Position numbers and translations under genes: made by a program. A stretch of 64,000 bases of DNA from Candidatus Latescibacterota bacterium (GTDB taxonomy: Bacteria > Latescibacterota > UBA2968). The notes beneath the pieces are model-generated. The model saw only the letters and a list, made by a program, of their open reading frames with translations, was not told the DNA's origin and did not search any database. This document shows, piece by piece, positions 6,172-26,049 of the stretch (positions are counted from its first letter, which is position 1; every line of letters begins with the position of its first letter). The stretch spans positions 5,280,001 to 5,344,000 of the forward strand of contig OZ242311.1 of the NCBI GenBank assembly GCA_965207885.1. Reading direction: 5' to 3'.

Positions 6172-6412
6172 GGATACTGCTCCTCTATGGAGTGATTGAT
6201 GACATCTTTACTACTTGCGATCTACTGCGTTTCCCCGGCGACTTCAAGCGAAAATATGTATCATCCCTCCTCTCTGCGTGAAGCCGGCGGTGTGCAGGCG
6301 CCCCTGCACACCACTCAAATTCTCAGTTTTATAGTACAATATAAACCAATAATTGGGATTAAAAGTTCCCGGTTTTTTTAGAAGGGCGCAAAATACCGCG
6401 CCCTTCCGCGAT

Positions 6413-9400
6413 CTACCACTTAATGCGCAAGCTGAAATTCATCTCGCGCGGAGAATCCCAATAGTTGCCGATATCGTTGATTTCCGGTGCTTGCAGACCC
6501 AGCGCAACAATATCGACATTGGTAGGCTCTAAGCCCATGATACCATACTTCTGATAGCGGTCGGAATCCCAATCTTCTGGAACCCCGCCAAGGCTATTCT
6601 GGCGCCAGTCCTTCTGATTGAACAAATTGTAGATCTCCACAGCCACGGTTATGTTCACGCCCGACATATTGCCAAATACCTTCTCGGCATTGAAGTCCGC
6701 ACGCGTATGGAGGGGACCCTGACGGAATCCCTGAATACCACCCGTGCTATACGTAAACCTGTTACCCGCGTAGAGATAATACACCAGATTGGAGCGAATA
6801 TTGCCCAGTGCTTTGCCCCCAAAAGGACCGTAGTTCGCCGGCGTGGCAAACAAGAACGTAATCGAACCGAAACTGCGGCGGTCAGCGGTCAGCGGAGCGC
6901 GCTCGCCCGATTCCTGGTTGTGCGCCACCGACAGGGTGCCTTCGCCACTTCCCGGATTGCCGGGATGGTTGCCAGCGCGTTCCCAAAATTCTCTGTCTCC
7001 ATCGTCGTAATGGCCCAGACTCGTACGGGCTTCATTGGCGACAAACTGCGCGCCCTCTGCCGAATAGTGCGAATACCACGGAATCCACGACCACGCACCA
7101 CCTCTGCCGTCGAAATTCAATATTCGGGTATGTTGAGACCGCAAATAAATATTCGCCTGTCTTCCATACGCCTCAATGTAGTGATCCTCGGGTAACCCTT
7201 CGCGACGGGCTTTTTCCCGCAGTGATACGGGCGTCTCTACGCCCGTCGTAGGATCGACATCCCAGGTGTTAAAGTAGTACCCACTGGCTACGAACTGAGA
7301 GTCTGGCCATACATCGCGGCGGTGCGCGCTATTGCGACCTCCGTCTGCCCACTGCAGGTTGTAGCCCACATTGAACGAGAACATGTTCGAGAATTTCTTC
7401 CGCAAATTGATCTCGAAACCGCGAACATCGCGCCAATTGCCCGGCCCATGGCCTTGAACACCCGTCACATACTGATGGCCTCCTGGATCAATCCACTGCT
7501 GTGAGGCGCTTCTGATCTCATTGCCCGACGCCTTGTAATAAGTCGTCAGCCCGAGCACGTAATCACCCACAAAGTTCCAGTCCAGACCCACCTCAAAAGA
7601 AGTGGTTTCTTCGGGAGGCAAATACGGAGTGCCGTGCCGTGAGCCAGAGTCATTGAACTCGTTGAACTGTTCGCCGGGATCGATCGAACCATTGCCATTC
7701 AGATCCCTATCCACGGCCTCATTGGACGTGAACTCGTTCATGAACATTTCGTGGAATTGCGGGCGCTGCACAAACCGACCGTAGAAAAAGCGCACGAGGC
7801 TCTTTTCCGTAATCGGGTGCGACACGCCAATGCGAGGCTGAACTGCTTTGATCGTGGGTCCCTTGGTTGTGGGAATATAGGCGGAACGCGTCATGCCATT
7901 CCAGGGCGCCTTAGCACCGTACCAGGCATCGGAGTCTTTGATATAGGTGTTCGGGAAGAAAATCTCGCCCCTCATGCCCGCATTCACAATCATCCCCTCA
8001 AACTCGATCTTGTCCTGAATATAGACACCAAAGTCAAGGGGATTGAGGCCCACATTGTTTCCACTGGGCCAGAATGCCGTATCTGTATAGTTCTGGGAGA
8101 ACCAGCGCAAACGACGGTGCGTGGGACCATTTGACCACCGCTGCTGATACCAGTTGTTGTAGCGAATCACTTCCACGCCGGCTTTCACAAAGTTCTGCTT
8201 GTTCACCTGGCTGGAAAGATCTGCCTTAAAGCTCACCCGGTTGTAGCTATACATGCTCCAGTTGTGCGTTTCGCGGTAAATCGTGTAGTGCCCTGCCGCA
8301 TCCTTCACACTCGAAGACGTCAGTTTATCATCTACGATAAAGTGGCGATGAAAGCCCGTGGTGTCGCGGTCCGTCGTCGAATAGCCCAGATTTACTTCGT
8401 AAAAAGTCTTGGGAGACAGGGAATGCGTCACAGCACCGTAAAACAACGCATCTGTGGTAACGAGGTTACCCGTTGGATTTACGACGTGTAAAAAGATATT
8501 TTTTCCACTGTTGCGCAAATCCAATCTGCCGCCATCGCTCGGGCCACCAAAGGTCCCTTCACTGCTATTGTAAATCCCCCCTGCTCGCAACTTCAAGCTG
8601 GGAGACGCAGAAAATGTCAACTTCGCCGTATTGCGCGTATTCCGGGGCGTGGTCAAATTGGCATTCAACAATGCCGCAGGCTCTTTGCGCCAGACCGTAC
8701 TGGCAAAAAATGTCATGTCCTGACTCAGAGGACCCGCGATATTGCCATCGATGCGATGCCCCATTTTGCCCGTGTAGTCCAGACGCTTGTGCGCCTGCAC
8801 GATATCGTTGGAACCATCGCCATCGAGGTCAGCGGGGATCTCGATCTGCTCTGCAACCCAGTCGGCATTATCCCACCTGTTATTGCCCCGGTGCATGGGC
8901 GAATCGTACACATTTGCACCCCAGTGCTTCTGTCCCGAAGGTGTGAATCGATAGTCCAGCATACCGCTGTATGACGAACCACCATCGCGCGTCACCATCG
9001 AAACCACACCACCCTGGGCATTGCCATACTCGGCGTTGTAACCGCCCGTAATCACCTGGAGTTCCTGAACCGCACTCTTGTTCAGGCTTCGTCCAATACC
9101 CGTGCGAGAACCATAGGAGTCAGTCGTTGAAATGCGAACGCCATCCACGATGTATGCCACATGGTCGCGGTCGCCGCCGCGAATCATAATCTCATCGCCT
9201 TCGGCATCGACGGAAACACCAGCCTGAAGCTCGATGAAATCACCCATATCGCGCACGATGGGTACGGCTTCGAGATCCTCGGCACTCATAATATACTTAC
9301 TCGTCGTCTTATCCGGCTCAACGGGCGGGCGCTCTGCAATCACCGTGATTTCGCCCAATTCCAGAGCTGCCTCTCGAATCTGGAAATCAACCGTCGTCGT

Positions 9401-9688
9401 CAAGTCAGTTTGAACCCTGATGTCGGTCTGACGCTGTGCATCATAACCCACTAACGAGGCCGTCATCGCATACGTGCCGGGATCGACGAGCAAAATGACA
9501 AAAAAGCCATCGGGATCGGTGACTGCACCGCGCTGTGTGCCTTCAATCACCACATTGGCACCCGGCAATACCTCACCCGTCTGCGCGTCGCGCACTGTCC
9601 CCTGCACTTTTCCCGTTGTCGCGGCATGTGAAACACCCGCGCTAACAAGCAAGGACAGCACAACTATTGAAAGTATCTTTCGCATCAA
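6413..9688 (-). CDS. TonB-dependent receptor with an N-terminal carboxypeptidase-regulatory-like domain
   Basis: GKVQGTVRDAQTGEVLPGANV, IRGG...YIVDG, TGGYNAEYGNAQGGVV and QPRIGVSHPI motifs, terminal Trp. Confidence 0.9.
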   Translation of the reverse strand: MMRKILSIVVLSLLVSAGVSHAATTGKVQGTVRDAQTGEVLPGANVVIEGTQRGAVTDPDGFFVILLVDPGTYAMTASLVGYDAQRQTDIRVQTDLTTTVDFQIREAALELGEITVIAERPPVEPDKTTSKYIMSAEDLEAVPIVRDMGDFIELQAGVSVDAEGDEIMIRGGDRDHVAYIVDGVRISTTDSYGSRTGIGRSLNKSAVQELQVITGGYNAEYGNAQGGVVSMVTRDGGSSYSGMLDYRFTPSGQKHWGANVYDSPMHRGNNRWDNADWVAEQIEIPADLDGDGSNDIVQAHKRLDYTGKMGHRIDGNIAGPLSQDMTFFASTVWRKEPAALLNANLTTPRNTRNTAKLTFSASPSLKLRAGGIYNSSEGTFGGPSDGGRLDLRNSGKNIFLHVVNPTGNLVTTDALFYGAVTHSLSPKTFYEVNLGYSTTDRDTTGFHRHFIVDDKLTSSSVKDAAGHYTIYRETHNWSMYSYNRVSFKADLSSQVNKQNFVKAGVEVIRYNNWYQQRWSNGPTHRRLRWFSQNYTDTAFWPSGNNVGLNPLDFGVYIQDKIEFEGMIVNAGMRGEIFFPNTYIKDSDAWYGAKAPWNGMTRSAYIPTTKGPTIKAVQPRIGVSHPITEKSLVRFFYGRFVQRPQFHEMFMNEFTSNEAVDRDLNGNGSIDPGEQFNEFNDSGSRHGTPYLPPEETTSFEVGLDWNFVGDYVLGLTTYYKASGNEIRSASQQWIDPGGHQYVTGVQGHGPGNWRDVRGFEINLRKKFSNMFSFNVGYNLQWADGGRNSAHRRDVWPDSQFVASGYYFNTWDVDPTTGVETPVSLREKARREGLPEDHYIEAYGRQANIYLRSQHTRILNFDGRGGAWSWIPWYSHYSAEGAQFVANEARTSLGHYDDGDREFWERAGNHPGNPGSGEGTLSVAHNQESGERAPLTADRRSFGSITFLFATPANYGPFGGKALGNIRSNLVYYLYAGNRFTYSTGGIQGFRQGPLHTRADFNAEKVFGNMSGVNITVAVEIYNLFNQKDWRQNSLGGVPEDWDSDRYQKYGIMGLEPTNVDIVALGLQAPEINDIGNYWDSPREMNFSLRIKW

Positions 9689-9700
9689 TTTTTACCTCCT

Positions 9701-10474
9701 TTAATCCCAGAAATAGAATTTGAACCCGGCACTCAGATCAAACATCTGAAGCGGAAATGCCTTGTCCAAGCCCCATGCATCTCGAGGGCGGAGTTCGCCG
9801 AGAATAAAATGATACCGCGCACGCACATCCAGCGCGATCGTCTGCGTCACATGCGCTTCCAGCCCCAACCCCAACACCGCGGTCACGGCCGTGCGCGTAT
9901 CTTCCTGGCGGTCCATCACCACCTGGGGCAAAATATCGCCCTGGGCATCCACATTCGTCGCATCTACACCGCTGGCATCGGTCGGACTCTGACCGGGCCA
10001 AACGATATTTTCTGCTATGGTCTTGTGATCGTACACACCGCCACCCGCAACGATATAAGGCGAAAAACTCCCCTCATCCATTGAACGGTCCGCATTAAAA
10101 AACCACAACCCGGACAATAGCACACTATTAAAGCGATTCGTGTGCGAACTATTCGGGTTGATATCTTTGCTGCTATATTGCTTGGCTGTCAAAGCCTTGG
10201 GGGACCAGGTAAACTCACCGGATTCCAGAGCGCCACCATCCATCTGAGTGTGGTGAAACTCGGCTTCAACGGTCAGGCGAGAGCTACTCACGCGACTGGC
10301 TGTAAGCCCCCATTTATCCACACCACTCCCAAACCGCTCACCAAAGGTGAACAGGGGATTGGTATAGCTGACAAACCCGCCCAGGCCCCACTTACCGGCA
10401 ACCTGAGCCGAAGACATGCTTGCCGAAGCTAGTACACCTGCAACGACAAAACCTAAAACTTTAAACCATCTCAA
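9701..10474 (-). CDS. Outer-membrane beta-barrel protein (OmpA/OmpW-like)
   Basis: Signal peptide, SPYIVAGGG, LGLGLE and alternating beta pattern, ends GFKFYFWD. AGGAGGT RBS with a TTG start. Confidence 0.75.
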   Translation of the reverse strand: MRWFKVLGFVVAGVLASASMSSAQVAGKWGLGGFVSYTNPLFTFGERFGSGVDKWGLTASRVSSSRLTVEAEFHHTQMDGGALESGEFTWSPKALTAKQYSSKDINPNSSHTNRFNSVLLSGLWFFNADRSMDEGSFSPYIVAGGGVYDHKTIAENIVWPGQSPTDASGVDATNVDAQGDILPQVVMDRQEDTRTAVTAVLGLGLEAHVTQTIALDVRARYHFILGELRPRDAWGLDKAFPLQMFDLSAGFKFYFWD

Positions 10475-10695
10475 AGTGCTACCTCCTTTCGCAAACTGCG
10501 AAAAATGAACGACTTAACAACTTTAACTATGCAACGCAAAAAAATCTATCTCTATTCATCACCTCCTTTTGTTTGTTATCACATCTGAAACATACAGCAC
10601 AAAAACAGCCATCAAGACATAATAGATTGAAAATTTGTTTCAAAAATGTTTCTAAAAATTCAATTTAATGTAAAAAAAAATTACGCGCTATGCAA

Positions 10696-11895
10696 TCATT
10701 TTTTTGCCTCTAACCGCAACCGCCTTGCCTCCGTGCGGATCTTATCCATCTCCATCTTCATCCGCACGATACCCTCCCAATGCGTATAATCTGGCGAATG
10801 GTGATACGCCGCCTTAAATGTAGTCGCGTGATAAAACTTGAACAACCTGAAAAACGCCTGCTCAATCTCCGATGTATTTTCGTACAACTGCTGCCCGCCC
10901 AGTTCAAAAGCGTGTCCAACCACCGGATTGGCCGGACGGTCTTCGGGCATGGGATCCAGCGCTCCTTCATCGTACAGCGCCTTAATCACCGCATAAGACT
11001 CTGCAACCAGCGCGTCGGCCTCGCGCTTAATCGCATCTGCACGCTCCAGGCTCTCTCGGGAAAACCGATTGGAATGACAGGGCGCACACACCTGCAACAT
11101 CGCATTCCGATTCGCTTCAAACTCCTCTTTTGTCAAACGTTTCATCGCCAGATGCGGCAAAAAATCCTCCTCGAGCACTGCCCCCGTAAACACCGCACCC
11201 AACCCGATATTTGCCACATGCCCGTGATCGCCATTGGGCATGTGGCACGTCACGCAACTCGGCGACTTCTCGGCATCTCTATCCGCATAATACAAAACCC
11301 CGTGAATACTCGTCTTATACGCCTCCATCACCGGATGGTCCGGACCGCCGTGACAAACGGCACATGCCTCTGGCTCTCGCGCAAGCGCCGCGCTAAATTC
11401 ATGACTCGGATGACAGGTGTTGCACCCTCCCACGCTGCCATCGGCAAACCGCGCGCCAATGCTGTGGCACCCCATACACCCCTCTTCTTGCATCGCGCGC
11501 GACTGTGCCAAAAAACGCGCATCTGACAACGCAGCCAATTCCGCATCGGCATGCCCGCTCTCTGCAAATGCCTCGACCTCTTCTGCGTGACATTTGCCAC
11601 ACATCCCCGCCGACACCTGCCCCCGAACAGCAAAAACCGTCTCGTGGTTCTCACCGTGGCAATCCGCACACCCCACATTGGCTCGAAAATGGGCACTCTC
11701 GCGCCACTGTTTATCCATACCCGGATCGATATTCCGATGGCACCCCTCGCACGACTGGTCACTCTGGATGCGCCACAAAAAACCCGGGCGAGCGGCAAAC
11801 CGAACCGCCTCTTCCGGCTGCAACACATAAAACACACCAAAAGCGCAACCCAATACCAGCACGCCAATGCCAACAATTTTCATCCAGCGCTTCAC
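10696..11895 (-). CDS. Membrane-anchored octaheme cytochrome c, hydroxylamine-oxidoreductase-like
   Basis: Eight CxxCH motifs (CEGCH, CADCH, CGKCH, CMGCH, CNTCH, CAVCH, CVTCH, CAPCH), HEFS...AREPEAC, GPDHP and HHSPDYTHWEG. Confidence 0.85.
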   Translation of the reverse strand: MKRWMKIVGIGVLVLGCAFGVFYVLQPEEAVRFAARPGFLWRIQSDQSCEGCHRNIDPGMDKQWRESAHFRANVGCADCHGENHETVFAVRGQVSAGMCGKCHAEEVEAFAESGHADAELAALSDARFLAQSRAMQEEGCMGCHSIGARFADGSVGGCNTCHPSHEFSAALAREPEACAVCHGGPDHPVMEAYKTSIHGVLYYADRDAEKSPSCVTCHMPNGDHGHVANIGLGAVFTGAVLEEDFLPHLAMKRLTKEEFEANRNAMLQVCAPCHSNRFSRESLERADAIKREADALVAESYAVIKALYDEGALDPMPEDRPANPVVGHAFELGGQQLYENTSEIEQAFFRLFKFYHATTFKAAYHHSPDYTHWEGIVRMKMEMDKIRTEARRLRLEAKK

Positions 11896-14657
11896 AATTC
11901 ACGCCCTTCCAATTCGCGCAACAAATCGCGCACCTGCACATTGCCCGGCTCTCGCGCAATCACGCGCCTCAAAATCGCAACCGCACTATCTCGCTGCCCG
12001 CCTATGGCATAAGCCTGTCCCATAAACAACTCCAACCCCTGCGCTTCTGGCTCCAGCACCCACGCCTGTCGATATACAGACAGCGCACCTCCTATATCGC
12101 CGCGCTCCTGTAAAACCGTACCCAGCACAGTAAGCGCAGGCACATAAAAAGGATCGACAATCAACGCATCCACCAAAAGAGATTCCGCAACCTCTAACTC
12201 GCCCAAATCAGCCCGAATAAGCCCCTGCATCGCATACACATCAGCGCGGTTGGCATGGTATTTCACCGCAACTTCAAAATGCGGCAACGCATCTGCGAGC
12301 GCACCCTGCACATAGACGCGGTGCCCGGCGGCAAAAACCGAATCCGATTTTGCGATCCCCACATCTCGCGCCTGCCTGCCCAAACCAAATAAACCCGTAC
12401 CCGCATCCTCCATTTCCAGCGCCCTGCCATAAGCCGCGCGCGCCAACGCCCAATCGCCCGACAGCGCATGTGCCGTCCCCCTTTCCACCCAATCGCCTAT
12501 CGGCATCTCGTCCCACTCATAATCATCGCGCACCTCGCCATCGCCAGCCGAAAACGCCAATAACGCGAGTTGTCGAATCGCCGGAACATATCCCGACGCA
12601 ATTGCAAGTGCGCGGCGATAGGCTTCGATAGCATCTGCGCGATCCCCACTACCCCACAGCGCATTACCCACAGCGGTATGCAAAACGGGCGAACCCTCGC
12701 GCACATCATCAAAAGTTGTCGCAGCATCTGCATAGCGTCCATGGTGCAACAGCAATGCACCTGCGCGCAACCGGGAAGTCAAATCGCTCTTCTCCCTGAG
12801 CAACGCCCTCATCTGCTCAAAACGCTTCTGTTTTTGCGCCAATCGCGCCAGATCTGCCGCGGTCTCCGGATGCCGGGGGTCTAACTTTGCAACAATCTCA
12901 AACTCCCGCCTCGCATCTTCAAAAAGCCCCTGCGCTTCATAGACCTGCCCCAAACCCTCGTGAAAGCCCGGATCGTCGCCCTGCACGCCATACACCACAT
13001 CGCGATGCTCCTCAAGTGCCCGGCGGAACGCATCGCCCACAGCGGAACCATCCGGCAAATAGCCAATATCCATCAACGCAAACGGCGCTTGCACCCGCAC
13101 AATGCGCGCCGAATCGGACAACGCATCCAAAAGCGCTGGCAAACCGCGCACATCGCCCAAACGCCCCAGCGAAATCGCCGCCTTCATCCGCACCATCGCA
13201 TGCGAATCACCCATCGCCTCAACCAGTGCCGGCACCGCACGCGCATCCTCCACCCCCCCCAGCAAAGACGCAGCCGTTGCACGCCAAACTGCACTCTCAC
13301 GCCCATCGTTTACCAACTTCATCAACGGCGCCACATCACCGCCCTTTTGCCCATTCGCAATCGCCGTTGTACGCGCCACAATTTCGCGCTGATAATCGCC
13401 GTACCACTGCTTTGCCCAGGCAGAAGCCCATTGAGCGGACTTATCTTCGTGACACTGATTGCACGCATTGGGCACCCCATTGACCACCGTATTTTCCGGC
13501 GCAGGGGATGCAATGCGGTGATCCGTCAAATTTTCTCCCGTCACATAGTGATATGGCATGTGACACTGCACGCATTGATTGCCCACACTGCCCGCGCGGT
13601 GATGCCCATGCGCGACCGGATCGGCTGCGACATCACCATGACACGTTTCGCACAACTCCACGCCATTTCGGTCCGCCAACAGATCTACATCGCGCGCTGT
13701 TCCGTGCGCGTCGTGGCACGTCGTACACGTCAATTCACCCTGAATATAACACGCACTCATCAAATGCAATGCCGCCGGATATAAATAAACCCGGGGCTGT
13801 CCATCGGGATAAAAAATCGCCTCGTCATCTGGCAACACAAGAGAATAATAATCGTAAAAATTCTCACCCGGCAAATACCCGGTCGCCACAATTTCCTTGG
13901 CGGAATGACACTGTGCACACACCTCAACAGACCGTTCCTTATCCAGCGACCGCAACAACAGCAAATGCAGCGGGGCATCGACCTGTCCGCGCGTCTCATC
14001 GTGTTTGCCCGACGGCCCGTGGCACGCCTCGCAATCAATACTCAGACTGCCCACAGTCGTGCGATAAGTCTGAGTAGGCACATCGTAATGCTTTTGCACC
14101 CGGCTGGCATGGCAATCAAAACAGTGAAAATTCCACGTGCGCCCCGCATTCGTCCAATAATAATAATCTTCTCCCGCAAGGGGCCGCGACTGAGCCACCA
14201 CCCCTCCTTCTTGTGCATCAACCCAATCATTTGTCGCGCCATCGTGATACAGCGGCAACACCTGCCACCGCCCATTGGGAAAAGCCGTCAAATAAGCCTG
14301 ATGCTGCCGCTTGCCAATCGCGTAATCCACGCGATGTGCTCTAACGCGCCCATCCTCATCCTCAGTCTGCATATAATACGCATCGCCTCTGCGAAACATG
14401 CGCGAACGCACACCGCCATACACATGGGACACATTGCCAAAATCGCCCACAATCGTCGAATCACTCGGCACAGTCATAGCGACGCTGTGCAAACTCTGCC
14501 GCCACTCGGCATACTTGTCGGTATGGCAGGCAGCGCACCGTTCCAGCCCCGTAAACCCCGGCTCAGAAGCGCGCACCAAATTGGGCACCTCGCGCTCCCG
14601 GCTGCACGACGCAAACACCAGAATCACCCATAAAATGTGAAATATCCCAAACCGCAT
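11892..14657 (-). CDS. Lipoprotein: octaheme cytochrome c plus HEAT repeats plus TPR repeats
   Basis: Lipobox FASC, eight CxxCH motifs, HEAT repeats (AVPALVEAMGD) and C-terminal TPRs. Confidence 0.85.
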   Translation of the reverse strand: MRFGIFHILWVILVFASCSREREVPNLVRASEPGFTGLERCAACHTDKYAEWRQSLHSVAMTVPSDSTIVGDFGNVSHVYGGVRSRMFRRGDAYYMQTEDEDGRVRAHRVDYAIGKRQHQAYLTAFPNGRWQVLPLYHDGATNDWVDAQEGGVVAQSRPLAGEDYYYWTNAGRTWNFHCFDCHASRVQKHYDVPTQTYRTTVGSLSIDCEACHGPSGKHDETRGQVDAPLHLLLLRSLDKERSVEVCAQCHSAKEIVATGYLPGENFYDYYSLVLPDDEAIFYPDGQPRVYLYPAALHLMSACYIQGELTCTTCHDAHGTARDVDLLADRNGVELCETCHGDVAADPVAHGHHRAGSVGNQCVQCHMPYHYVTGENLTDHRIASPAPENTVVNGVPNACNQCHEDKSAQWASAWAKQWYGDYQREIVARTTAIANGQKGGDVAPLMKLVNDGRESAVWRATAASLLGGVEDARAVPALVEAMGDSHAMVRMKAAISLGRLGDVRGLPALLDALSDSARIVRVQAPFALMDIGYLPDGSAVGDAFRRALEEHRDVVYGVQGDDPGFHEGLGQVYEAQGLFEDARREFEIVAKLDPRHPETAADLARLAQKQKRFEQMRALLREKSDLTSRLRAGALLLHHGRYADAATTFDDVREGSPVLHTAVGNALWGSGDRADAIEAYRRALAIASGYVPAIRQLALLAFSAGDGEVRDDYEWDEMPIGDWVERGTAHALSGDWALARAAYGRALEMEDAGTGLFGLGRQARDVGIAKSDSVFAAGHRVYVQGALADALPHFEVAVKYHANRADVYAMQGLIRADLGELEVAESLLVDALIVDPFYVPALTVLGTVLQERGDIGGALSVYRQAWVLEPEAQGLELFMGQAYAIGGQRDSAVAILRRVIAREPGNVQVRDLLRELEGREL

Positions 14658-14749
14658 AACACGTCCTGTTGATGCGCCAATAAAAAATGTAAACCGTCAC
14701 CCCCACAAGAGCAACGGCCACCAATGCGATGACAATAGCAGTGTCGCAC

Positions 14750-15616
14750 TTAAGGCTCTCCCCGCGCACACCGAAACCCAATATGGGCAAATATTTCATA
14801 AGTATCAAAATCGTCGCGCGACAGAGCTTGCTCTTCCATAATCAAAACCGTACTCCGCACAAACACGCGGATACTGGGTTGTGGTGAAAACCAACTCCCA
14901 CCGCGCAACGTGCGATCTGGCCCATCTTTCATACCTGAATTTTCTAAATTAACCGGATTGTGCCTGGGGCTATTTGCGTAATACGTATGCTGGTATTCAT
15001 CCAGCGTCCACTCCCACACATTGCCCGCCATATCCATCGCGCCATAAGGACTTGCACCATTCGGATAGCTGCCCACGGGCATGGGACCCGAACTGAAATT
15101 AAAATTGCACAGCGATTCACTCGCAGGCTCATTGCCCCAGGGAAACACGCGCCCATCTATACCCGCAGCGGTCAATTCCCACTGCGCCTCGCTCGGCAAT
15201 TGCAAACCCGCCCACTGGCAATAATCTCGCGCTTGAGACCACAAAACCCCCACCGCTGGCTGATCGGGTCGATCAAACCCCTCTATTCGAAAGTACTGCG
15301 GTTCTTCATTTCCCGTAGCCTCCACAAAAGCCAAATACTGCGCGTTGGTGACCTCGTATTTATCAATATAAAAAGCGTCGAGCATCACCTCGTGCGGCGG
15401 GCGCTCATTCGAAGGCCCATCGCTCGACCCCATCGTAAAGGTGCTGGCCGGAACAAAAACCTGCACATGCTCCGTACCCGCAGGCGTGGTCACAACAGAT
15501 TCTTCAATCACATATTCTGGATCGACCGCCTTGCTACAAGCCATGGCCAATGCAATACCCAAAACGCCGAATCGATAAACCGTTTTTGGTATCATGACGC
15601 ACTCCATCACGTCCAA
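14750..15616 (-). CDS. FGE-sulfatase/SUMF1 domain lipoprotein
   Basis: FTMGS, P.HEV.L..FYIDKYEVTN, LPSEAQWE, DMAGNVWEW, RGGSW and GFRCA motifs, lipobox-like AMAC. Start codon uncertain. Confidence 0.9.
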   Translation of the reverse strand: MDVMECVMIPKTVYRFGVLGIALAMACSKAVDPEYVIEESVVTTPAGTEHVQVFVPASTFTMGSSDGPSNERPPHEVMLDAFYIDKYEVTNAQYLAFVEATGNEEPQYFRIEGFDRPDQPAVGVLWSQARDYCQWAGLQLPSEAQWELTAAGIDGRVFPWGNEPASESLCNFNFSSGPMPVGSYPNGASPYGAMDMAGNVWEWTLDEYQHTYYANSPRHNPVNLENSGMKDGPDRTLRGGSWFSPQPSIRVFVRSTVLIMEEQALSRDDFDTYEIFAHIGFRCARGEP

Positions 15617-16644
15617 ACAATATAATTGCCCGAATCCACCATAATGCGATGCACATACGTCTCGATCATGGCGTGATCCCGCTCGTGTTCTGCGGTCTTT
15701 AAACTAAATGGCCGCAACACTGGAATTTGCATCTCTGGATCTGTCCAATCTTGCACATAAACCGAATTTTTCATACCGCTCAACACAACCTGAATATCGG
15801 TTATCAAATCATCCGTAAAATGATTGGGCAAATCCCAAAGCGCTATCTCAGTATCAAAAGACTGCAAATCAGATACAAACCGCGTTTTGTGACTCTGAAC
15901 AGTCTCATTAAACGCCCTCTGCAACGCCATGCGCCCATCCAAATGCGTGCATGTACGCACCAGAGGTCCCAAATCTTTGGGACACACCACCGCGTGAACC
16001 GTCGTCACCTTCTCATTTTCTCCCGGCACAGCCACAGCCAGCATCTTCTCTGTAACGCGAGGGGAAAAACCCGTCAAATTCGGATCGATAAATTGCCGGT
16101 GTTCCAACCCGGGCCAGTAAAAATGCCTCCCCACATCCAGGTGCTCGTGCATCTCCAGCAAACCGTGAAACACGCACTCCAGCACAGTATTGCCCGCCGA
16201 GACCCCATTTGCCGAATCATTCAAATGCGGCACATCCGACACCTTCATATTGGACGGCACAAGCTCTACATCGGAAGTCAACTCATAAATGGGAGTCTCC
16301 CTCCCGCTCGCCAGCGCATCAAAAAACGAAATGCGCTCGACCGCCTCTGCCATCGCCCCGGCCAGCACTTGCTGTTTGGAAAGCCCCTTGCCCATCGTTC
16401 GAAGCGCGATACCCTCCATCAGAGGCCCTTCGTATTTGCGAAACAGTGCCGACTGCACGTAATCCGTATAACAATCGGCGATCCACACCGTATCGTAAAA
16501 CCGCCGCGCGCGCGTTTGAAACCGACACTTTTTGGACAGCGCCTCCCCAAACCGCGCAATGGTCTCTTCAAACGGAACCGTGCGATCGGCAACAACAATG
16601 CTTGTGCCGTAATGATTGAATACGGTATGATGCGACTCGCTCAT
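15607..16644 (-). CDS. Stand-alone YcaO-like protein
   Basis: GKGLS...AGAMAEAVER, SANGVSAGNT...GLLEMHEHLD and AFNETVQS match YcaO ATP/Mg motifs, with some substitutions. Confidence 0.8.
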   Translation of the reverse strand: MSESHHTVFNHYGTSIVVADRTVPFEETIARFGEALSKKCRFQTRARRFYDTVWIADCYTDYVQSALFRKYEGPLMEGIALRTMGKGLSKQQVLAGAMAEAVERISFFDALASGRETPIYELTSDVELVPSNMKVSDVPHLNDSANGVSAGNTVLECVFHGLLEMHEHLDVGRHFYWPGLEHRQFIDPNLTGFSPRVTEKMLAVAVPGENEKVTTVHAVVCPKDLGPLVRTCTHLDGRMALQRAFNETVQSHKTRFVSDLQSFDTEIALWDLPNHFTDDLITDIQVVLSGMKNSVYVQDWTDPEMQIPVLRPFSLKTAEHERDHAMIETYVHRIMVDSGNYIVWT

Positions 16645-17774
16645 TGCGCCCGTGCCCGATTCATATCTTCAACCGCCTCGGCAAATCGCCCCATTTGACG
16701 AAACGTCTCCGCGCGGAGTTCTCGTGCCCATCCATTTTCGGGATCAATATCCAACGCCCGTGTAAAATCTGAAACCGCTGACTCATACTGCCCCAGCATT
16801 CGTCGAGACTCCCCGCGATTTGCCCAAATCCACGCATCCCTGTTCTCCAGCATCACCGCCCGATCAAAATCGATCAGCGACGCCTCGGGATCATTTTCCA
16901 TCCGCAATGCAACGCCTCGCCCCATAAGTGCCCAAAGATGATCGGGAAAAATCTCCAGCGCCCGTGTAAAATCGCGTATTGCTTCGGCACTTCTCCCCAA
17001 TTGCCGCAACATATCACCCCGCGCGGCCAACAAATCCGGGTCGTCAGATGCGATAATGAGTGCGCGATCAAAATCCAAAAGCGCGTCCTCCACTTGACCG
17101 ATCTCTCGCAGCACCTCGCCCCGCCCGATCAATGCACCCAGATGATCGGGCATCACCTTCAAAGCCTGCCCAAACATCTCCATCGCGGCCTCAGCCTCAC
17201 CAGCCTGACGGTAGATCTCCGCCCGCCCGGCAAACGCATCCGGATGCCCATTGCCCACTGCAATCGCCCGGTCAAAATCGACCGCAGCCGCGTTAAACTG
17301 CCCCAACTGCATCAACACATGCCCGCGACTGATCAGCGCGCCAAAATAATCCGCATCCAACGCCAAAACCCGATTGAGATCCCCCAAAGCCTCCTCAAAC
17401 CTCCCTACCTCGCGCAAGGTCTCTCCCCGACTCGCAAGAGCCTGCGTATTTTCCGGATCGAGCGCAACAGCTTTTCCAAAACTATCTATCGCCGCATCAA
17501 ACTGCCCCATCAACCCGCAGGCAATCGCGCGATTGCTCCACACATAGGGATCATCTGGTGCCAGAGCAATTGCGCGGTCAAAATCCGCAATCGCCGCATC
17601 AAATCTCCCCAATTGCCCATAAGTAATCCCGCGCTGAACAAACACAGCGGGATCGCCATCGCGGATTGCAACAGCCGCATCAAAACCCGCAACAGCCGCT
17701 TCCAGATCGCCGCCATCGCGGAGCGCGATAGCGCGCTGAACCACAGATTCAAAGTCATTTATAGATAGAGACAT
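16641..17774 (-). CDS. TPR repeat protein
   Basis: About 11 regular TPRs (RG...LG.F.AA..DFDRAI.L.P). Probable start MSLSINDF at 17774; the ORF extends to 17864. ATGA overlap with ycaO. Confidence 0.88.
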   Translation of the reverse strand: MSLSINDFESVVQRAIALRDGGDLEAAVAGFDAAVAIRDGDPAVFVQRGITYGQLGRFDAAIADFDRAIALAPDDPYVWSNRAIACGLMGQFDAAIDSFGKAVALDPENTQALASRGETLREVGRFEEALGDLNRVLALDADYFGALISRGHVLMQLGQFNAAAVDFDRAIAVGNGHPDAFAGRAEIYRQAGEAEAAMEMFGQALKVMPDHLGALIGRGEVLREIGQVEDALLDFDRALIIASDDPDLLAARGDMLRQLGRSAEAIRDFTRALEIFPDHLWALMGRGVALRMENDPEASLIDFDRAVMLENRDAWIWANRGESRRMLGQYESAVSDFTRALDIDPENGWARELRAETFRQMGRFAEAVEDMNRARAQ

Positions 17775-17920
17775 AGAAAAAAAAGTGGGAACCCCGAAAC
17801 AGCCCAAACGTGAACACAATGTAGATAAACAAAACCCCAAAATCAAGCGCAAACCCCGTGACATTTTGCGCGCGATTTAGTATATTAGCAATCAGCTATC
17901 AGCAGTCAGCTAAAAACCTT

Positions 17921-18023
17921 CTGGATCGCGGCTCAAGCATGCCCCGTAGTGCTTCTATACGGGGACCATGCCGCGATGACGATTGCTACTTGTCACACCT
18001 GCATGCTTTGAGCAGGTGTCCAG
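17921..18023. repeat. Composite REP-like palindromes
   Basis: CTGGATCGCGGC...GCCGCGATGAC with a nested CCCCGTA...TACGGGG hairpin, followed by ACACCTGC...GCAGGTGT. Same family as 29919 and 31860. Confidence 0.6.
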
Positions 18024-18053
18024 GATGAAGCTCTCACCTTATGGAGGAACACC

Positions 18054-19364
18054 ATGAAACACCTGCGAATGCGTATTTTCTCTATCGCCCTATTTTTGGG
18101 CTTATGCACAACAGCTTTTGCCCAGTCCGGAGTGGGTGAAAAAGTAAACGAATTTCAACTTCAAGCCACCGATGGCAGATCTTATGGCGTCAGCCATTCG
18201 ACCAACACGGTCTCCGTCCTCTTTTTTGTAGGTTACAACTGAGGGACTTGCATAGGGGCGGGTCCCGCCTTTGAAAAAGATGTTCACCAACGCAACAAAG
18301 ACAAAACCGGCATACAGATCCTCACACTCGACAGATACGACGGCAACCGCACACAGGCAACATCCTATCTGACGCGATCCAGTGTCACGACGCCCATGCT
18401 CACAAGTGCCTCTGGCGTCTCCGCAACTCTCGGCACTCGCAACGAGGACATCCTCGTCATCGACCAAGGCGGCATCCTGCGCCTCAGAACCACAGCAATC
18501 GCCACTGGCTCTGCTGACCTGGTCAACGCGCAAGTCGATGCACTACTCAACAAAACGCCTGTTATTTCCCTCTTCCCATCAGAGATCTACTTTGGCAGAA
18601 CCCTTGAAGTAGGGCAATCCAAAACCGTAGAATTTAAAATCGAAAACACCGGTGCAGGACCCCTCGAAATCACCGGATACTCGGCTCCCGAAGGCATCAC
18701 AATGGAGCCATCCACACTGACCATAGCTCCTGGCGAAAGCAAAACCGTACAAATCACCCTGACGCCAATGCAAGCCGGCACATTTTCGGGTAAAATCACC
18801 CTCCAACACGGCGAACAAAGTGTTGGCACCCTGGAAATACCCGTTCTCGACCTCACCATCGAAGCGTCCCCGCTCCCGATCATTTCACTAATTCAGGAAA
18901 ATTTGAGTTTGGGTGAAATCGAAATGGGCAGAGGCATCACAACAACATTTACCATCACAAATACTGGTACAGGCCCACTCAACATCACAGACATCCAATC
19001 CGACATCGCGGGCATTGCGCTTTCAGAAACCCAATTAACAGTGCCACCCGGTCAATCTCAGGACATCACCGTGACTTTCAATCCGCCAGCTCCAGGTCCA
19101 ATTACCGGCACCATCGACATAATCTCAAACGACCCGGAAAAAGCCTCAATCAGCCTGACCATCACCGGTTCGGCCATCTTCATCCCCGCTGATCCACGCA
19201 CCGACTTCAATGGTTCGCTCACCGTTGACTTTTATGACTTCCTCCTATTCTCAGAAGCCTTTGGCACGGCCAATGCAAACTTTGATCTCGACGGGTCCGG
19301 CACTGTTGACTTTCCCGACTTTCTCATATTTGTCGCAAGCTTTGGAAAAGCAGTCAACGGATGA
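18054..19364 (+). CDS. Secreted selenoprotein: redoxin (UxxC) domain, two Ig-like (ASH/choice-of-anchor D) domains and a dockerin/EF-hand-like tail, 436 aa
   Basis: ORFs 18054-18242 and 18396-19364 are in one frame, separated only by TGA 18240-18242. Read-through gives VLFFVGYN-U-GTC, and a hairpin follows the TGA directly. The tail DFNGSLTVDFYDFLLF is repeated. Confidence 0.85.
18243..18266 (+). promoter_or_regulatory. Candidate bacterial SECIS hairpin
   Basis: GGGACTTGC-ATAGGG-GCGGGTCCC forms a 9-bp stem (two G-U pairs) immediately 3' of the UGA. Confidence 0.6.
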
Positions 19365-19529
19365 TCAGGATGTGCAGAGCCTGCACTGGAACGCCTCTAT
19401 CCAGTGATGAAAGGGTGAACAGGATGAGCCCCCGTCTCAGCCCCCCAGTTCCCAGACCCCTTCTTTTCATCCTGCACTACTTCTTTAATTCACAACTATG
19501 TCCATCTGTGTTAATCCGTGTTCCTTTCC

Positions 19530-20231
19530 ATGTCCCACCGTCAAACGCTCACCAACGCATTCAAACGCATCCTCGAAATAGCGGATCACAACCATCTCTA
19601 TTTGCCCTTTCAACGCGACAGCAAACTGCGGGCAAAACACTTTCCCGGTGCAGGGGCTAAAATCGGGCGGAAAAAACTCATCGACGCATATCTCCAGGAA
19701 TTTGGCGACACAAACCCCGATGAAAAATTACTCCAACACGTCACCTATCCCTGGATTCACGGGTACGACGCCAGCCTCACACATATTCTCGACGACCTTC
19801 GAAAACACCAAAAAAAAGCACCCGCCGAACTTTCTCTTGAGCGCAAACGCGCACTCGAAAAGAAATTTACCCGCACGGGTGCCGAAGAAATCTCCGCCTT
19901 TTGGAGCGTATATGCCGCTGCTGACAACAGCTATCGCAAAAGCGTCATAAAAATGCTCGCCCGCGTCAAACCTCCCGAAACGGCCCCTCCAACCATTCAG
20001 CCGACACAAAAGCCCACAATCCACGATTATCCTCAGCCCGAATCCGCCACACAATCGATATATGCATTGTTGGGCACGCTCATCTTCTTTGTCCCCGCCC
20101 TTATATTTGTTATAATACAATACTGGCGACTCCCGAACGAAAGCCACTACATCGCCCTATCAATCGCCGGATTTTTTGGGCTAATCACACTCATTTTTCT
20201 CATCGACTACCTGCGAAAACGCAACATTTGA
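19530..20231 (+). CDS. Hypothetical membrane protein with two C-terminal TM helices
   Basis: Long ORF with a Pro-rich linker and two hydrophobic segments. Start uncertain (19518 or 19530). Confidence 0.65.
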   Translation: MSHRQTLTNAFKRILEIADHNHLYLPFQRDSKLRAKHFPGAGAKIGRKKLIDAYLQEFGDTNPDEKLLQHVTYPWIHGYDASLTHILDDLRKHQKKAPAELSLERKRALEKKFTRTGAEEISAFWSVYAAADNSYRKSVIKMLARVKPPETAPPTIQPTQKPTIHDYPQPESATQSIYALLGTLIFFVPALIFVIIQYWRLPNESHYIALSIAGFFGLITLIFLIDYLRKRNI

Positions 20232-22024
20232 TCACAATGAAACGCCCTCTCGTCATCGCACTCTTTCTCGCCTTCCCGATTTGCCCCTGGGCCGCTCCCC
20301 TCCAAATCGGCGATACCCTCAATGACTTTATCCTTGCCGACCTCAACGGCTCGCCCGTTACCCTCAGTGATTTATCCCAGGACCGCGCACTCGTCATCAT
20401 CTTCGGTTCCGTCGTCTGCCCTGCCTCGCTAAAATACGACATACATCGAACACAAATACACGATCGGTATGCTCCCAAAGGCGTACACCTGATATCTGTA
20501 AATGCCAATTTTAACGAAACCGACAAAGACATCAAAGAACACTACGCCCAAAACCCCGTACCCTTCACCATCCTGCGCGACCCGCACAACAAACTCGCCG
20601 ATCACCTCGGCGCGACCCACACCCCCCACGCCTTTCTCTTTGACGCCCAGCGCCGCCTGCGCTACAAGGGAGAAATCGACAACGGCTGGGGCATCCCCGA
20701 AGATACGACCTCGCGCGGATTGTGGGACGCCCTCAATGCACTGCTCGCCAACCGCAAAATCGCCAACACCAGCCTCCCCAGTTTTGGCTGTGAAATCAGA
20801 CGCACGCCCCGGCAAACAACTGTCGCGAACACCTCCACCCCAACATTTTATCGCGACATCCTGCCCCTGCTCCAAAATCGCTGCCAGAACTGTCATCGCC
20901 CCGGCGGCATTGGTCGCGTACCCTTTTTCGACTACACAGAAGTACTCGCATGGGCCTATCAGATGCGCGACTCCATCGAAGCCCGCATCATGCCACCCTG
21001 GAAAGCGCGCCCCGAATACGGCGACTTCAAAAATTCCCGCAGACTCACAGACGCCGAAATCCTCACCTTCGCGCAATGGGTCAACAGCGGCATGCCAGAG
21101 GGCAATCCCGCCGACCAGCCCGAACCCATTGCATTTTCCAAAAGCTGGACCCTGGGCACGCCCGACCTGATCCTCGAACCCAAAGCACCCTATCCACTCG
21201 AAGCTGTGGGCCGCGACGAATACCGCTGCTTTGTCTTGCCCACAAAACAGGACACGGGCAACTACGTATCGGCCATTGAAGTCCTGCCCGGAGCGCGCGA
21301 AGTTGTCCACCACGTCAGCGTGTACATCGACATCTCTGGCAAAGCACGCCTGCAACAGGAAAACGCGTCCGCGCCGGGCTACCCTTGCTTTGGCGGCATT
21401 GGCGTACCCATCTACGAATCCCTGGGCGGCTGGGCACCCGGCAACACCCCCTTTGTTCTTCCAGATGGCATAGGTCGCGATTTACCGCCCAACAGCGACA
21501 TCATCCTCCAGATCCACTATCACAAAATTGGCCGCGCCGTAAAAGATCATTCTCGATTGGGCATCTACTTTGCCCAAAAACCCGTACAAAAACAGCTCCG
21601 CGAAGAAGTCATCAACAGCCGCTTGCTCTTCATTCCCCCCAACATCAAACGACACAGAGTAACCGGCGCAATCACCATCACACGCAACCAGCACCTGCTC
21701 GGTATTTTGCCTCACATGCACTTGCTCGGCACGGAAATGAAAATAACCGCAACCTATCCCAACGGCACCCAAAAACCCCTGATATGGGTCAAACCCTGGG
21801 ACTTTAACTGGCAAGAAACCTACGTGTACAAAACACCCATCGCACTCCCGCGCGGCACCCGCATCGCGCTCGAAGCCTTTTACGACAACTCTGCCGACAA
21901 CCCCCAAAACCCCAACAATCCACCCAGGCTGGTGCGATGGGGCGAAAAATCAACCGATGAAATGTGTACCGCATTTCTCTATGTCACACACGATGATGAA
22001 AACTTAGAGGCAAGTAAGAAGTGA
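20228..22024 (+). CDS. Redoxin, monoheme cytochrome c and copper type II (PHM/DBH-like) monooxygenase fusion
   Basis: AhpC/TSA-like N-terminus (CP, ATHTPHAF, YKGEIDN), CQNCH, and Cu-ligand motifs VVHH, QIHYH, PHMHLLG and DEMC. Confidence 0.8.
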   Translation: MITMKRPLVIALFLAFPICPWAAPLQIGDTLNDFILADLNGSPVTLSDLSQDRALVIIFGSVVCPASLKYDIHRTQIHDRYAPKGVHLISVNANFNETDKDIKEHYAQNPVPFTILRDPHNKLADHLGATHTPHAFLFDAQRRLRYKGEIDNGWGIPEDTTSRGLWDALNALLANRKIANTSLPSFGCEIRRTPRQTTVANTSTPTFYRDILPLLQNRCQNCHRPGGIGRVPFFDYTEVLAWAYQMRDSIEARIMPPWKARPEYGDFKNSRRLTDAEILTFAQWVNSGMPEGNPADQPEPIAFSKSWTLGTPDLILEPKAPYPLEAVGRDEYRCFVLPTKQDTGNYVSAIEVLPGAREVVHHVSVYIDISGKARLQQENASAPGYPCFGGIGVPIYESLGGWAPGNTPFVLPDGIGRDLPPNSDIILQIHYHKIGRAVKDHSRLGIYFAQKPVQKQLREEVINSRLLFIPPNIKRHRVTGAITITRNQHLLGILPHMHLLGTEMKITATYPNGTQKPLIWVKPWDFNWQETYVYKTPIALPRGTRIALEAFYDNSADNPQNPNNPPRLVRWGEKSTDEMCTAFLYVTHDDENLEASKK

Positions 22025-22091
22025 GAAGTCCACCCAACACCGCCCCAAGACAGGTGCTTCTTCAAACTTCACATATCACCGGACTTTCACC

Positions 22092-23687
22092 ATGAAAAAA
22101 CTCCTCAAACTCAGCATGCTCATCACCCTGATCCACGCGCCTGTCCACGCCCAATGGAACATCGCCGTATTGCCCCATGAAAACACATTGGGCGACCCGC
22201 AGTGGAATTGGCTCTCCGCAGCCATTGTCGAAGGATATGTCAATGCCTATTACCACGTACCGAAAATACATGCCGTTGACGAAGAATATCTGCGCCACAA
22301 ACTCGGAGACACGCCGGTAAGCTCCTCTGATCTCGCAAAAAAATTGGACATCCACCTGATTTTAAGCGGGCGTTATCACATTGTGGGATCGCGCATCCAA
22401 ATCGAAACCGATTTGATTCATACAACCACGGGCGAAGTCATCGAAACCTTTACAGGCCAGGCCTCTACCTCTGCACCGCTCGACGCCATCTTGCCCGTGC
22501 TCTACGCCATTTCAAATCAGTTGAACATAACCCTTACACCCCATGAAAAAACCCGTCTGCAAATGCCCATGTTTCACGATGCAGAAGCACTCCGCATGGC
22601 AACTGAAAGCATGATGGCACTGTATCGGGCACTGCGACAATTTCCCATTGACAACGCTCAACTTACACAAGCTGAAAGCAGTCTAAAACGTGCCGTCCAA
22701 CGCGATGCCAAAAGCGCGATGCCCCACTATTATCTCGGGCGCATCTACGAAACACGCGACAAAATAACAGAAGCGGAAAATGCCTATCGCAACGCCCTCA
22801 AAATCGACTTTGAACACGTTGTTGCGCGCTATCGCCTGGCCTTGATCCTCAAAAAGCGCGGACACACAGAAGAAGCCATGAGCGAACTCGAACAGGCCCT
22901 CCAGCAGTCGCCCATAAATCCCGATATTCAGGCAGCTTTATCCGGCATGTTCTTCAATCAATACGCCCAAACCTTTGAAACAATCACCGCCCAACTTCGC
23001 CAGGCCATTCAGGCCAATCCCGATGATCCCATAGCCTGTTATGAATTGGCCAATGCTTATAACGAACTCGACCGCATTGACGAAGCCACAAAATACTACC
23101 ATCAAGCCCTGCAACGCGATTCCACACTCGCCGATGCACATTTCAAACTCGGCATGATCGCACACCGCAAAGGGAACCACGAAAAAGCCGTTGACCACCT
23201 CCAAAAAGCCGCGGCGCACAACACCCAATTCACCCGCGTCCATTTTCGCCTCGGCACCATATTCCACCTGATCGAACGCTATGACGCGGCGATCAAAGCC
23301 TTTTCAAAAGCTATCGAAGTCGAACCCAATTACGTCATCCCGCGCTATCACCTGGGCCTGAGCTATCTCGCAACCGCGCAGACAGACAGCGCCTATGAAG
23401 CCTTTCAGAAATACGCCGAACGCACCTCAGACGACCACCGACCGCATTTTCAAATGGCCGAGATCGCCCGCCAAAAAGGAGAACAGGAACGCGCAATAGA
23501 CGGATATATGCGCGCAATCGCCATCAGCCCTGTCCACGTACCGTCACACATACGCCTGGGCTATCTCCATGCCGAGCACCAGCGCTTTGACCTCGCCATC
23601 CAGCAATTGCAAACCGCGCTGCGCTTGCAACCCGAGCACCCCGATGCCGAAAAAATCCTCACCGACATCCAGAAATGGACACCGTGA
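22092..23687 (+). CDS. Secreted TPR protein with a CsgG/FlgO-like N-terminal domain
   Basis: Signal peptide, IAVLPHEN...WLS, multiple TPRs. Confidence 0.8.
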   Translation: MKKLLKLSMLITLIHAPVHAQWNIAVLPHENTLGDPQWNWLSAAIVEGYVNAYYHVPKIHAVDEEYLRHKLGDTPVSSSDLAKKLDIHLILSGRYHIVGSRIQIETDLIHTTTGEVIETFTGQASTSAPLDAILPVLYAISNQLNITLTPHEKTRLQMPMFHDAEALRMATESMMALYRALRQFPIDNAQLTQAESSLKRAVQRDAKSAMPHYYLGRIYETRDKITEAENAYRNALKIDFEHVVARYRLALILKKRGHTEEAMSELEQALQQSPINPDIQAALSGMFFNQYAQTFETITAQLRQAIQANPDDPIACYELANAYNELDRIDEATKYYHQALQRDSTLADAHFKLGMIAHRKGNHEKAVDHLQKAAAHNTQFTRVHFRLGTIFHLIERYDAAIKAFSKAIEVEPNYVIPRYHLGLSYLATAQTDSAYEAFQKYAERTSDDHRPHFQMAEIARQKGEQERAIDGYMRAIAISPVHVPSHIRLGYLHAEHQRFDLAIQQLQTALRLQPEHPDAEKILTDIQKWTP

Positions 23688-24397: not shown

Positions 24398-24414
24398 TCC
24401 ATGAAAGCCATCCC

Positions 24415-24837: not shown

Positions 24838-24851
24838 CTCGAGGCTTTTTT
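24822..24851. terminator. Bidirectional terminator between convergent genes
   Basis: AAAAGCCCCGAG-ATAA-CTCGAGGCTTTTT hairpin. Confidence 0.65.
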
Positions 24852-24868
24852 ATATTCTCAAAAACTTT

Positions 24869-25957: not shown

Positions 25958-26049
25958 GTGCCAAAACTCCTCCACAGTAATGAAAAAAATGATCCTGCTA
26001 TTGAAAAAAATGACCAAAAAACGACCAAAATCTGGCACAATATCTCTTT

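Follow-up and report, generated by a model that had tools for sequence, protein, structure and literature searches.

A small YcaO paired with a TPR protein in one Latescibacterota family as a candidate whole-protein-modifying enzyme

The window analysed here is a 64,000-nt stretch (5280001-5344000) of a closed 6.2-Mb Latescibacterota genome that is 97% complete by marker genes, and its region 10696-17774 (positions counted within the window) carries five minus-strand genes, encoding a TPR protein, a YcaO, a SUMF1/FGE-like lipoprotein, a HEAT/TPR cytochrome and an HAO-like cytochrome. The YcaO has the fold and the conserved ATP and magnesium residues of known YcaOs, is confined to a single GTDB family and lies directly downstream of the TPR gene in every locus where the upstream sequence is present. 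By analogy with characterized YcaOs, we tentatively propose, the balance of evidence being close, that this small, divergent YcaO and the TPR protein may together be a TPR-guided, TfuA-independent enzyme that modifies whole proteins and is probably a thioamidase. The only whole-protein YcaO substrates known to us are McrA and the ribosomal protein uL16.

A YcaO fold with conserved ATP and magnesium residues

The 345-aa protein encoded at 15607..16644 (minus strand) is a genuine YcaO. It matches PF02624 at 50.2 bits (cut-off 25.7), and a Foldseek search of its AlphaFold2 model against the Protein Data Bank (PDB) gave 39 matches at E ≤ 1e-3, with YcaO structures in all of the first 38 ranks, led by MJ1094, LynD, E. 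coli YcaO and M. kandleri YcaO (the chains matched include 6peu, 4v1v, 4q86, 6pe3 and 6ci7). TM-scores on the query were 0.54-0.61 for the top ten. MJ1094 was likewise the best PDB sequence match (E 4e-6) of a family profile built from 19 sequences down to 58% identity. The best NCBIfam match was to TIGR03266, at 37.5 bits against an equivalog cut-off of 365, placing the protein outside that equivalog.

The 19-sequence alignment has 110 invariant columns, and the profile aligns the stretches GKG...AEAxER, SxGNxxxECxxHGxxEMxEH and AHLDGxxAxQRAFNE with MJ1094, TruD and LynD. The ATP-binding motif of YcaOs, Sx6-7Ex3Qx3ExxER (from Dunbar 2014, as quoted in the excerpted text of PMC7774982), appears here as S149-x6-E156-x3-H160-x3-E164-x-x-E167-H168, with E100-x-x-E103-R104 before it and R243-x3-E247 after it. 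All acidic ATP/Mg residues are kept and are invariant, the motif Gln is replaced by H160, as in MJ1094, and the final motif Arg is an invariant His (H168). An initial annotation of the same DNA had described a short YcaO of 345 aa with EMHEHLD in place of ExxERD, which is how the protein reads (residues 164-170). It had also named a dead ATP site as something that would count against its ideas, and the invariance of the acidic residues speaks for the opposite: acidic ligands and an RAxxE motif that do not vary across 19 sequences make the pattern expected of a working active site, and from this sequence pattern we read the YcaO as having one, with one unexplained substitution. All five cysteines of the protein are also invariant down to 58% identity, and one of them, C157, directly follows the motif glutamate E156.

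A proline-rich PxP tail at the C-terminus is a feature of azoline-forming YcaOs, and R203 of E. coli YcaO (Ec-YcaO) and the PxPxP tail have roles in YcaO function. The window YcaO ends in ...NYIVWT, without proline, so that the absence of the tail noted in the initial annotation is upheld. Most orthologues are 334-336 aa long and the window copy carries a 9-residue insertion near its N-terminus; this segment, TVFNHYGTS (27 nt, about 16575-16601; residues about 7-15), has no counterpart in any of the 18 other aligned members, nor in a relative's RNA contig described below.

A word-indexed search of 5.8 billion proteins recovered 27 YcaO clusters, all of at least 58% identity, and an exhaustive HMMER search of 1.84 billion representatives recovered 16 matches at E ≤ 1e-3, only four of which (the YcaO family itself or its fragments) fell below 1e-10. 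There were no longer or fused forms among 8000 candidates scored, which is weak evidence for their absence.

Distribution of the YcaO and its closest companions

Among 168 Latescibacterota genomes, the YcaO occurs in 27, all in one GTDB family: it is present in 26 of the 30 family genomes plus the window's own genome, and in none of the 138 genomes elsewhere in the phylum. The family also includes three genomes (G066, G070 and G071) from which the YcaO, the SUMF1 orthologue, the cytochrome and p237 (a protein encoded on the other side of the TPR gene) are missing together. One metagenome-assembled genome (MAG) carrying the locus (L022, PBWH01000023.1, the same as G067:C34) is labelled Gemmatimonadetes at NCBI and falls in the window's Latescibacterota family.

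Gene anatomy was as the initial annotation had given it, with all five genes lying on the minus strand within the stretch that it named, and the three overlaps that it listed are borne out. The stop codon of the TPR gene and the start codon of the YcaO gene share ATGA, and those of the 921-aa cytochrome and the HAO-like gene share GTGA (4-nt overlaps in both cases), while the YcaO and SUMF1-like genes overlap by 10 nt from a TTG start, or by 1 nt if the lipoprotein begins at an ATG three codons on. The sole gap within the five-gene block measures 92 nt and separates the SUMF1-like gene from that of the 921-aa cytochrome.

We compared 25 genome loci and 10 metagenome loci, one of which (L038) duplicates L022. 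The TPR gene lies directly upstream of the YcaO gene in 24/24 genome loci and 8/8 metagenome loci that include upstream sequence. TPR Pfam families match its product at E-values down to 1e-65. The open reading frame (ORF) is open back to 17864, and all 12 TPR orthologues examined have an ATG at the M31 position (17774), so the protein most likely starts at M31, giving 377 aa (16641..17774, minus strand). From this start it has no signal peptide, nor does the YcaO, and because M31 appears to be the real start, the TPR protein is predicted to be cytoplasmic like the YcaO. The suggestion in the initial annotation that the TPR protein recruits a substrate gains plausibility from this unbroken linkage. 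Co-folding of the YcaO with the TPR protein and residues 1-150 of p237, with p237 as the scored partner, returned 0.00 in both runs; these had no controls, and the score speaks neither for nor against binding.

The gene downstream of the YcaO (14750..15616, minus strand) encodes a 288-aa lipoprotein of the SUMF1/FGE-sulfatase fold, counted from the TTG start, with a lipobox Cys27 and a PF03781 match at E 2e-48. At E ≤ 1e-60, its orthologue picks out the same 27 genomes as the YcaO and no others, apart from an odd partial match in G092. FGE has a catalytic cysteine pair at a characteristic position. The invariant cysteines of the SUMF1 orthologues are only C27 (lipobox), C133 and C283 (in a GFRC motif), and no cysteine pair follows RGGSW; the protein thus belongs to the fold family and lacks the mark of a true FGE.

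The p237 gene (19530..20231, plus strand) is the divergent neighbour of the TPR-YcaO pair, and its product has no Pfam match. It is present in 27 of the 168 genomes, 26 of them in common with the YcaO, and the two mismatches are MAGs that are 82% and 88% complete. The gene stays adjacent to TPR-YcaO even where the neighbouring immunoglobulin (Ig) domain gene is inverted. In its AlphaFold2 model, p237 consists of a helical N-domain of about 145 aa (pLDDT about 90 over residues 1-145) with an invariant F-x-G-A-G loop (FPGAG), a proline-rich linker, a C-terminal two-helix hairpin and a basic tail; on this model, we take it to be a membrane-anchored cytoplasmic protein to which no function is assigned. 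Foldseek against the PDB gave nothing at E ≤ 1e-3 and the ESM Atlas no usable match, while in a wide VIA search, in which the N-domain was searched within the whole protein, all matches were to the helical hairpin at the C-terminus, which is a widespread arrangement (Z up to 8.9). There are 87 clusters in the p237 family, and the few with an organism name are labelled Latescibacterota, Gemmatimonadetes or 'bacterium'; several p237 homologues, like the MAG mentioned above, are labelled Gemmatimonadetes. The TPR gene (32/32 loci), the SUMF1 orthologue and p237 are the tighter companions of the YcaO, and the co-distribution of the latter two with the YcaO is new here.

In metatranscriptome libraries labelled as sponge or coral, a 2321-nt contig from a relative about 95% identical (run X1) covers 15605-17887, that is, the YcaO and TPR genes, and an identical 200-nt RNA contig (X2) bridges the YcaO/SUMF1 junction. 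Such contigs carry no information on strand, transcript ends or whether the genes share a single transcript, and the uncovered parts of runs X2-X4 are uninformative.

Possible chemistry, candidate substrates and alternative readings

YcaO enzymes form azolines, thioamides and amidines, and one of them, MusD, carries out peptide cleavage. The known YcaOs that most resemble the window protein in sequence and fold are those that form thioglycine in McrA (MJ1094: 6pe3, 6peu; M. kandleri: 6ci7, 6cib), which are similarly small (361-385 aa), carry no fused E1 or TPR domain, come from organisms without TfuA, act on a full-size substrate and, like the window YcaO, have His at the motif Gln. The excerpted text of PMC5589413 reports that M. 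jannaschii and M. kandleri have no TfuA yet contain thioglycine. Besides the low TIGR03266 score, identity to these enzymes in the fold alignment is only 16-18%, and the window YcaO differs from them in its bacterial host (where no MCR is expected), its dedicated TPR gene, the change of the final Arg of ExxER to His, and its five invariant cysteines, with C157 inside the ATP-motif helix.

E. coli YcaO (PDB 4q84-4q86) offers a second point of comparison, since it also joins a TPR to a YcaO domain and works without TfuA. It thioamidates the folded protein uL16, and its 150-residue TPR domain has been suggested to aid dimerisation and substrate binding (PMC13063428, excerpted text). That domain is fused at the C-terminus, whereas the window TPR is a separate upstream protein of 377 aa with canonical TPRs, and the window YcaO scores 16 versus 700 bits with NF040716, has a PDB E-value of 0.011 to the E. 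coli type, and comes from another taxon and neighbourhood. The full-size-protein precedent to which the initial annotation appealed is thus available in both McrA and uL16 thioamidation (PMC5589413, PMC13063428). DVU2210 of D. vulgaris (excerpted text of PMC7774982), likened here by description only, resembles the window system in combining a YcaO with a TPR, in having no known peptide substrate and in its unknown function, but is fused, E. coli-like and has a canonical ...ELVER.

Azoline cyclodehydratases (SagD, TruD, LynD and McbD) share the YcaO fold and the ATP-motif residues but differ otherwise: TIGR03604 scores 15.3 versus 219.25 bits, and the window YcaO has no E1-like or RRE partner, precursor, proline-rich tail or dehydrogenase neighbour. 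The closed genome encodes one YcaO and, at 97% completeness, gave 0 matches to TfuA (PF07812); the neighbours scanned against Pfam and NCBIfam included no member of an E1/ThiF-like or nitroreductase-type family. These searches agree with the initial annotation, which had already noted that the neighbourhood holds no TfuA, E1/ocin-ThiF or dehydrogenase.

On the reading that we prefer, the TPR protein would recruit a folded or nascent protein substrate, as the fused TPR is suggested to do in E. coli YcaO, and the YcaO would O-phosphorylate a single backbone amide in it at the expense of ATP. The likely product would be a backbone thioamide, because the nearest relatives are the TfuA-less YcaOs that form thioglycine in McrA and because an E1-like partner, a precursor and a PxP tail are all missing. 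The substrate would belong to, or serve, the envelope redox module that is co-inherited with the YcaO. The first candidate would be the N-domain of p237, since it is the only cluster-encoded domain besides the TPR in the compartment of the YcaO, followed by the SUMF1-like lipoprotein before export and then by the heme-HEAT-TPR cytochromes before export. A more detailed version, in which the TPR protein docks an envelope protein of the cluster (p237 by its FPGAG loop, or the SUMF1-like protein or a cytochrome before export) and the YcaO makes a backbone thioamide with sulfur passed through its own cysteines, is speculative and rather unlikely to hold in full. Were such a sulfur-relay thioamidase real, YcaO modification would be seen for the first time in an envelope redox system of bacteria, and McrA and uL16 would be joined by a third class of protein substrate.

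Several points weigh against this proposal. The PF02624 match spans only profile positions 92-234 of 325, and the general YcaO domain model of NCBIfam, TIGR00702, scores 34.1 bits against a cut-off of 75.65. The AlphaFold2 model behind the fold comparison has a mean pLDDT of 69 and a pTM of 0.75, with residues 223-267 below 50, and the last residue of the ATP motif is changed to His (H168). Most candidate substrates are exported while the YcaO is cytoplasmic. Since every YcaO-positive genome falls in the same GTDB family, very few independent gains or losses lie behind the co-occurrence counts, and the RNA contigs came without a silent-stretch control, so DNA carry-over is possible. Activity, a complex of TPR protein and YcaO, chemistry and substrate are each argued here from analogy and context, and any substrate named is a candidate only.

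Of the other explanations, one that we judge unlikely but still worth weighing is that the YcaO acts on a housekeeping protein, or on some other protein encoded away from the cluster, as E. coli YcaO does on uL16, and that the neighbourhood reflects family synteny without functional meaning. The E. coli ycaO gene is itself not adjacent to the gene of its substrate, and the uL16 authors state that more whole-protein YcaO substrates are to be expected and are as yet undiscovered (PMC13063428, excerpted text). Restriction to a single, highly syntenic GTDB family would also fit, as would the presence near most loci of an unspecific Trx-PHM-like gene. However, the TPR, YcaO and p237 genes remain adjacent through rearrangements in a distant genus, the YcaO, p237 and SUMF1 orthologue share one pattern of presence and absence within the family, and an enzyme confined to one clade sits oddly with a universal substrate.

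An improbable alternative, close to the idea of the initial annotation that a redox protein has its backbone modified, is that the YcaO acts on a multiheme cytochrome ahead of its export by Sec and thereby adjusts a redox or metal site. Two cytochrome genes end the five-gene block, and the description of both as octaheme agrees with the 8 CxxCH motifs counted in each. The first (11892..14657, minus strand) encodes a 921-aa heme-HEAT-TPR lipoprotein with Pfam matches to HEAT_2, TPR, Paired_CXXCH_1 and Cytochrome_C7. The second (10696..11895, minus strand, GTG start) encodes a 399-aa membrane-anchored octaheme cytochrome of the HAO family (PF13447, 84.7 bits), whose best solved relative is the anammox HAO 4n4j (E 3e-33, aligned up to residue 439 of the 500 in the chain); it scores 106 bits with the HDH equivalog against a cut-off of 900, and the P460 cross-linking Tyr was not located. 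A multiheme cytochrome gene lies downstream of the YcaO in 21/24 genome loci and 7/7 metagenome loci that could be assessed (28/31 in all), and all 27 YcaO-positive genomes carry a heme-domain homologue at E ≤ 1e-20, which the three YcaO-less family genomes lack. The association that the initial annotation described thus recurs, and literature searches found no publication joining a YcaO with a multiheme cytochrome or a sulfatase-modifying factor.

The linkage is nevertheless the loosest of those around the YcaO. In three genomes of the same genus (G087, G091 and G081, with loci L014, L015 and L019), no multiheme cytochrome is found near the YcaO: the 921-aa cytochrome is kept, at 86-88% identity, but lies more than 300 kb away, as do an approximately 750-aa paralogue and the HAO-like gene, the three being scattered in G091, while TPR-YcaO stays in place. 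Heme-domain homologues occur in 40 of the 168 genomes, 12 of which belong to four YcaO-less families (27-44% identity), and a paralogue in the window's own genome lies among unrelated genes. A paralogue type of 740-770 aa with 7 CxxCH motifs is the cytochrome that adjoins the YcaO in other genera. In the genus furthest from the window's own (YcaO identity 58-64%), the TPR and YcaO genes are accompanied by a cytochrome of about 750 aa and the SUMF1 gene, the order being cytochrome-SUMF1 instead of SUMF1-cytochrome; the Ig gene is inverted, p237, TPR and YcaO are adjacent, and no HAO-like gene was seen in the loci. Two of these loci (L024 and L025), those with long enough contigs, continue with an FG-GAP protein and a TPR-heme protein, the former scanned against Pfam only in L024, where the pair (14530-18596) consists of an FG-GAP/ASPIC-UnbV protein and an 857-aa TPR protein with a C-terminal 7-heme domain. 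The HAO-like orthologue of one of the three genomes with relocated cytochromes (G091:C1:2758847-2760037) contains one in-frame TGA, which may be a selenocysteine codon, a pseudogene mutation or an error.

Between the SUMF1-like gene and the first cytochrome gene, in the sole gap of the block, lies a terminator- or attenuator-like hairpin with a T-run (14692..14719, minus strand), formed by a 12-pair stem followed by TACATTTTTT. It is the best terminator-like site of the region, where such sites number 10 against 11.4 in shuffled sequence and so are not above chance. The hairpin is kept in 8/8 close relatives aligned (in L003 both arms differ, which we read by eye as one compensatory change from a G-C to an A-T pair), and the rearrangement breakpoint of L014 and L019 falls at the site. 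The hairpin, the relocated cytochromes and the homologues in YcaO-less families together suggest that the cytochrome link is real but looser than that of one operon. The single operon of the initial annotation keeps its gene overlaps but has a terminator-like site ahead of the cytochromes, its conserved cytochrome association stands with exceptions, and modification of a redox protein would have to contend with cytochromes that are the least tightly linked members and that are exported, a signal peptide being absent from both the YcaO and the TPR protein.

It is decidedly improbable that the YcaO no longer modifies amides and instead works at the membrane, together with p237 and the TPR protein, as an ATP-binding scaffold, chaperone or regulator or by activating a non-peptide substrate. 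The Arg-to-His change in ExxER and the match to only the central portion of the Pfam model would accord with such a role, and the phenotype of Desulfovibrio DVU2210 is unrelated to any known peptide (PMC7774982, excerpted text); on the other hand, the acidic Mg/ATP ligands and RAxxE are invariant over 19 sequences, and so is the His itself, which is not drifting.

A maturase of peptides that are made on the ribosome and modified after translation (RiPPs) with an overlooked short precursor gene is very improbable: most characterised YcaOs do act on short precursor peptides, and sponge-associated Latescibacterota are reported to be rich in RiPP clusters (PMC9426513, whose excerpted text does not describe this locus), but no conserved precursor emerged when the intergenic ORFs of 12 loci were compared in the range 20-120 aa, where the clusters found were the first part of a selenoprotein (the sole real conserved one), its antisense ORFs and a few short low-complexity ORFs of close relatives, and no protease, transporter, dehydrogenase or E1-like protein was present among neighbours scanned against Pfam.

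Under the thioamidase proposal, this clade would be a compact test case, with one YcaO per genome, a separate TPR partner, no TfuA and a short list of co-inherited candidate substrates. It could show how TfuA-less YcaOs obtain their sulfur, and whether uncultured bacteria associated with sponges and corals use backbone chemistry in redox proteins of the periplasm or membrane. Also new here are the observation that the cytochromes can be separated from the YcaO, the terminator-like site, the parallel with the TPR domain of E. coli YcaO and the selenoprotein described below.

Neighbouring selenoprotein and other genes

On the plus strand beyond the TPR gene, the Ig ORF (18396-19364) and a small ORF (18054-18242) form one frame (18054..19364) with an in-frame TGA at 18240-18242, which is read as two ORFs under table 11. 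In 7/8 loci the TGA-x-x-Cys arrangement is found again, together with an open frame of about 370 aa; a 9-bp hairpin lies directly 3' of the TGA, and the genome has its SelA and SelB genes side by side at 4.30 Mb. From these sequence features, the gene is predicted to encode an exported UxxC thioredoxin-fold selenoprotein, composed of a signal peptide, a thioredoxin-like domain with U63-G-T-C (FFVGYN-U-GTC), two DUF1573 Ig-like domains and a dockerin/EF-hand-like tail.

The next gene after p237 (20228-22024, plus strand) encodes an exported 598-aa protein in which an AhpC/TSA-type thioredoxin fold (CPAS) is joined to a single CxxCH heme site and to the two halves of a copper type II (PHM-like) monooxygenase fold. 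This Trx-heme-PHM-like protein was considered as a specific companion of the YcaO and rejected, homologues being present in 72 of the 168 genomes, 44 of them in a YcaO-less family; the window's genome contains two further paralogues. An Rfam scan of 6000-26000 returned one sub-threshold small RNA match (24774-24868; 33.6 versus 114 bits), which is taken as chance. Downstream of a 531-aa TPR protein, the segment 23675-24837 (plus strand) contains, as judged by eye, an ORF for a MIP-family channel and an overlapping ORF with a CTGNSCRS motif resembling low-molecular-weight (LMW) phosphatases or ArsC.

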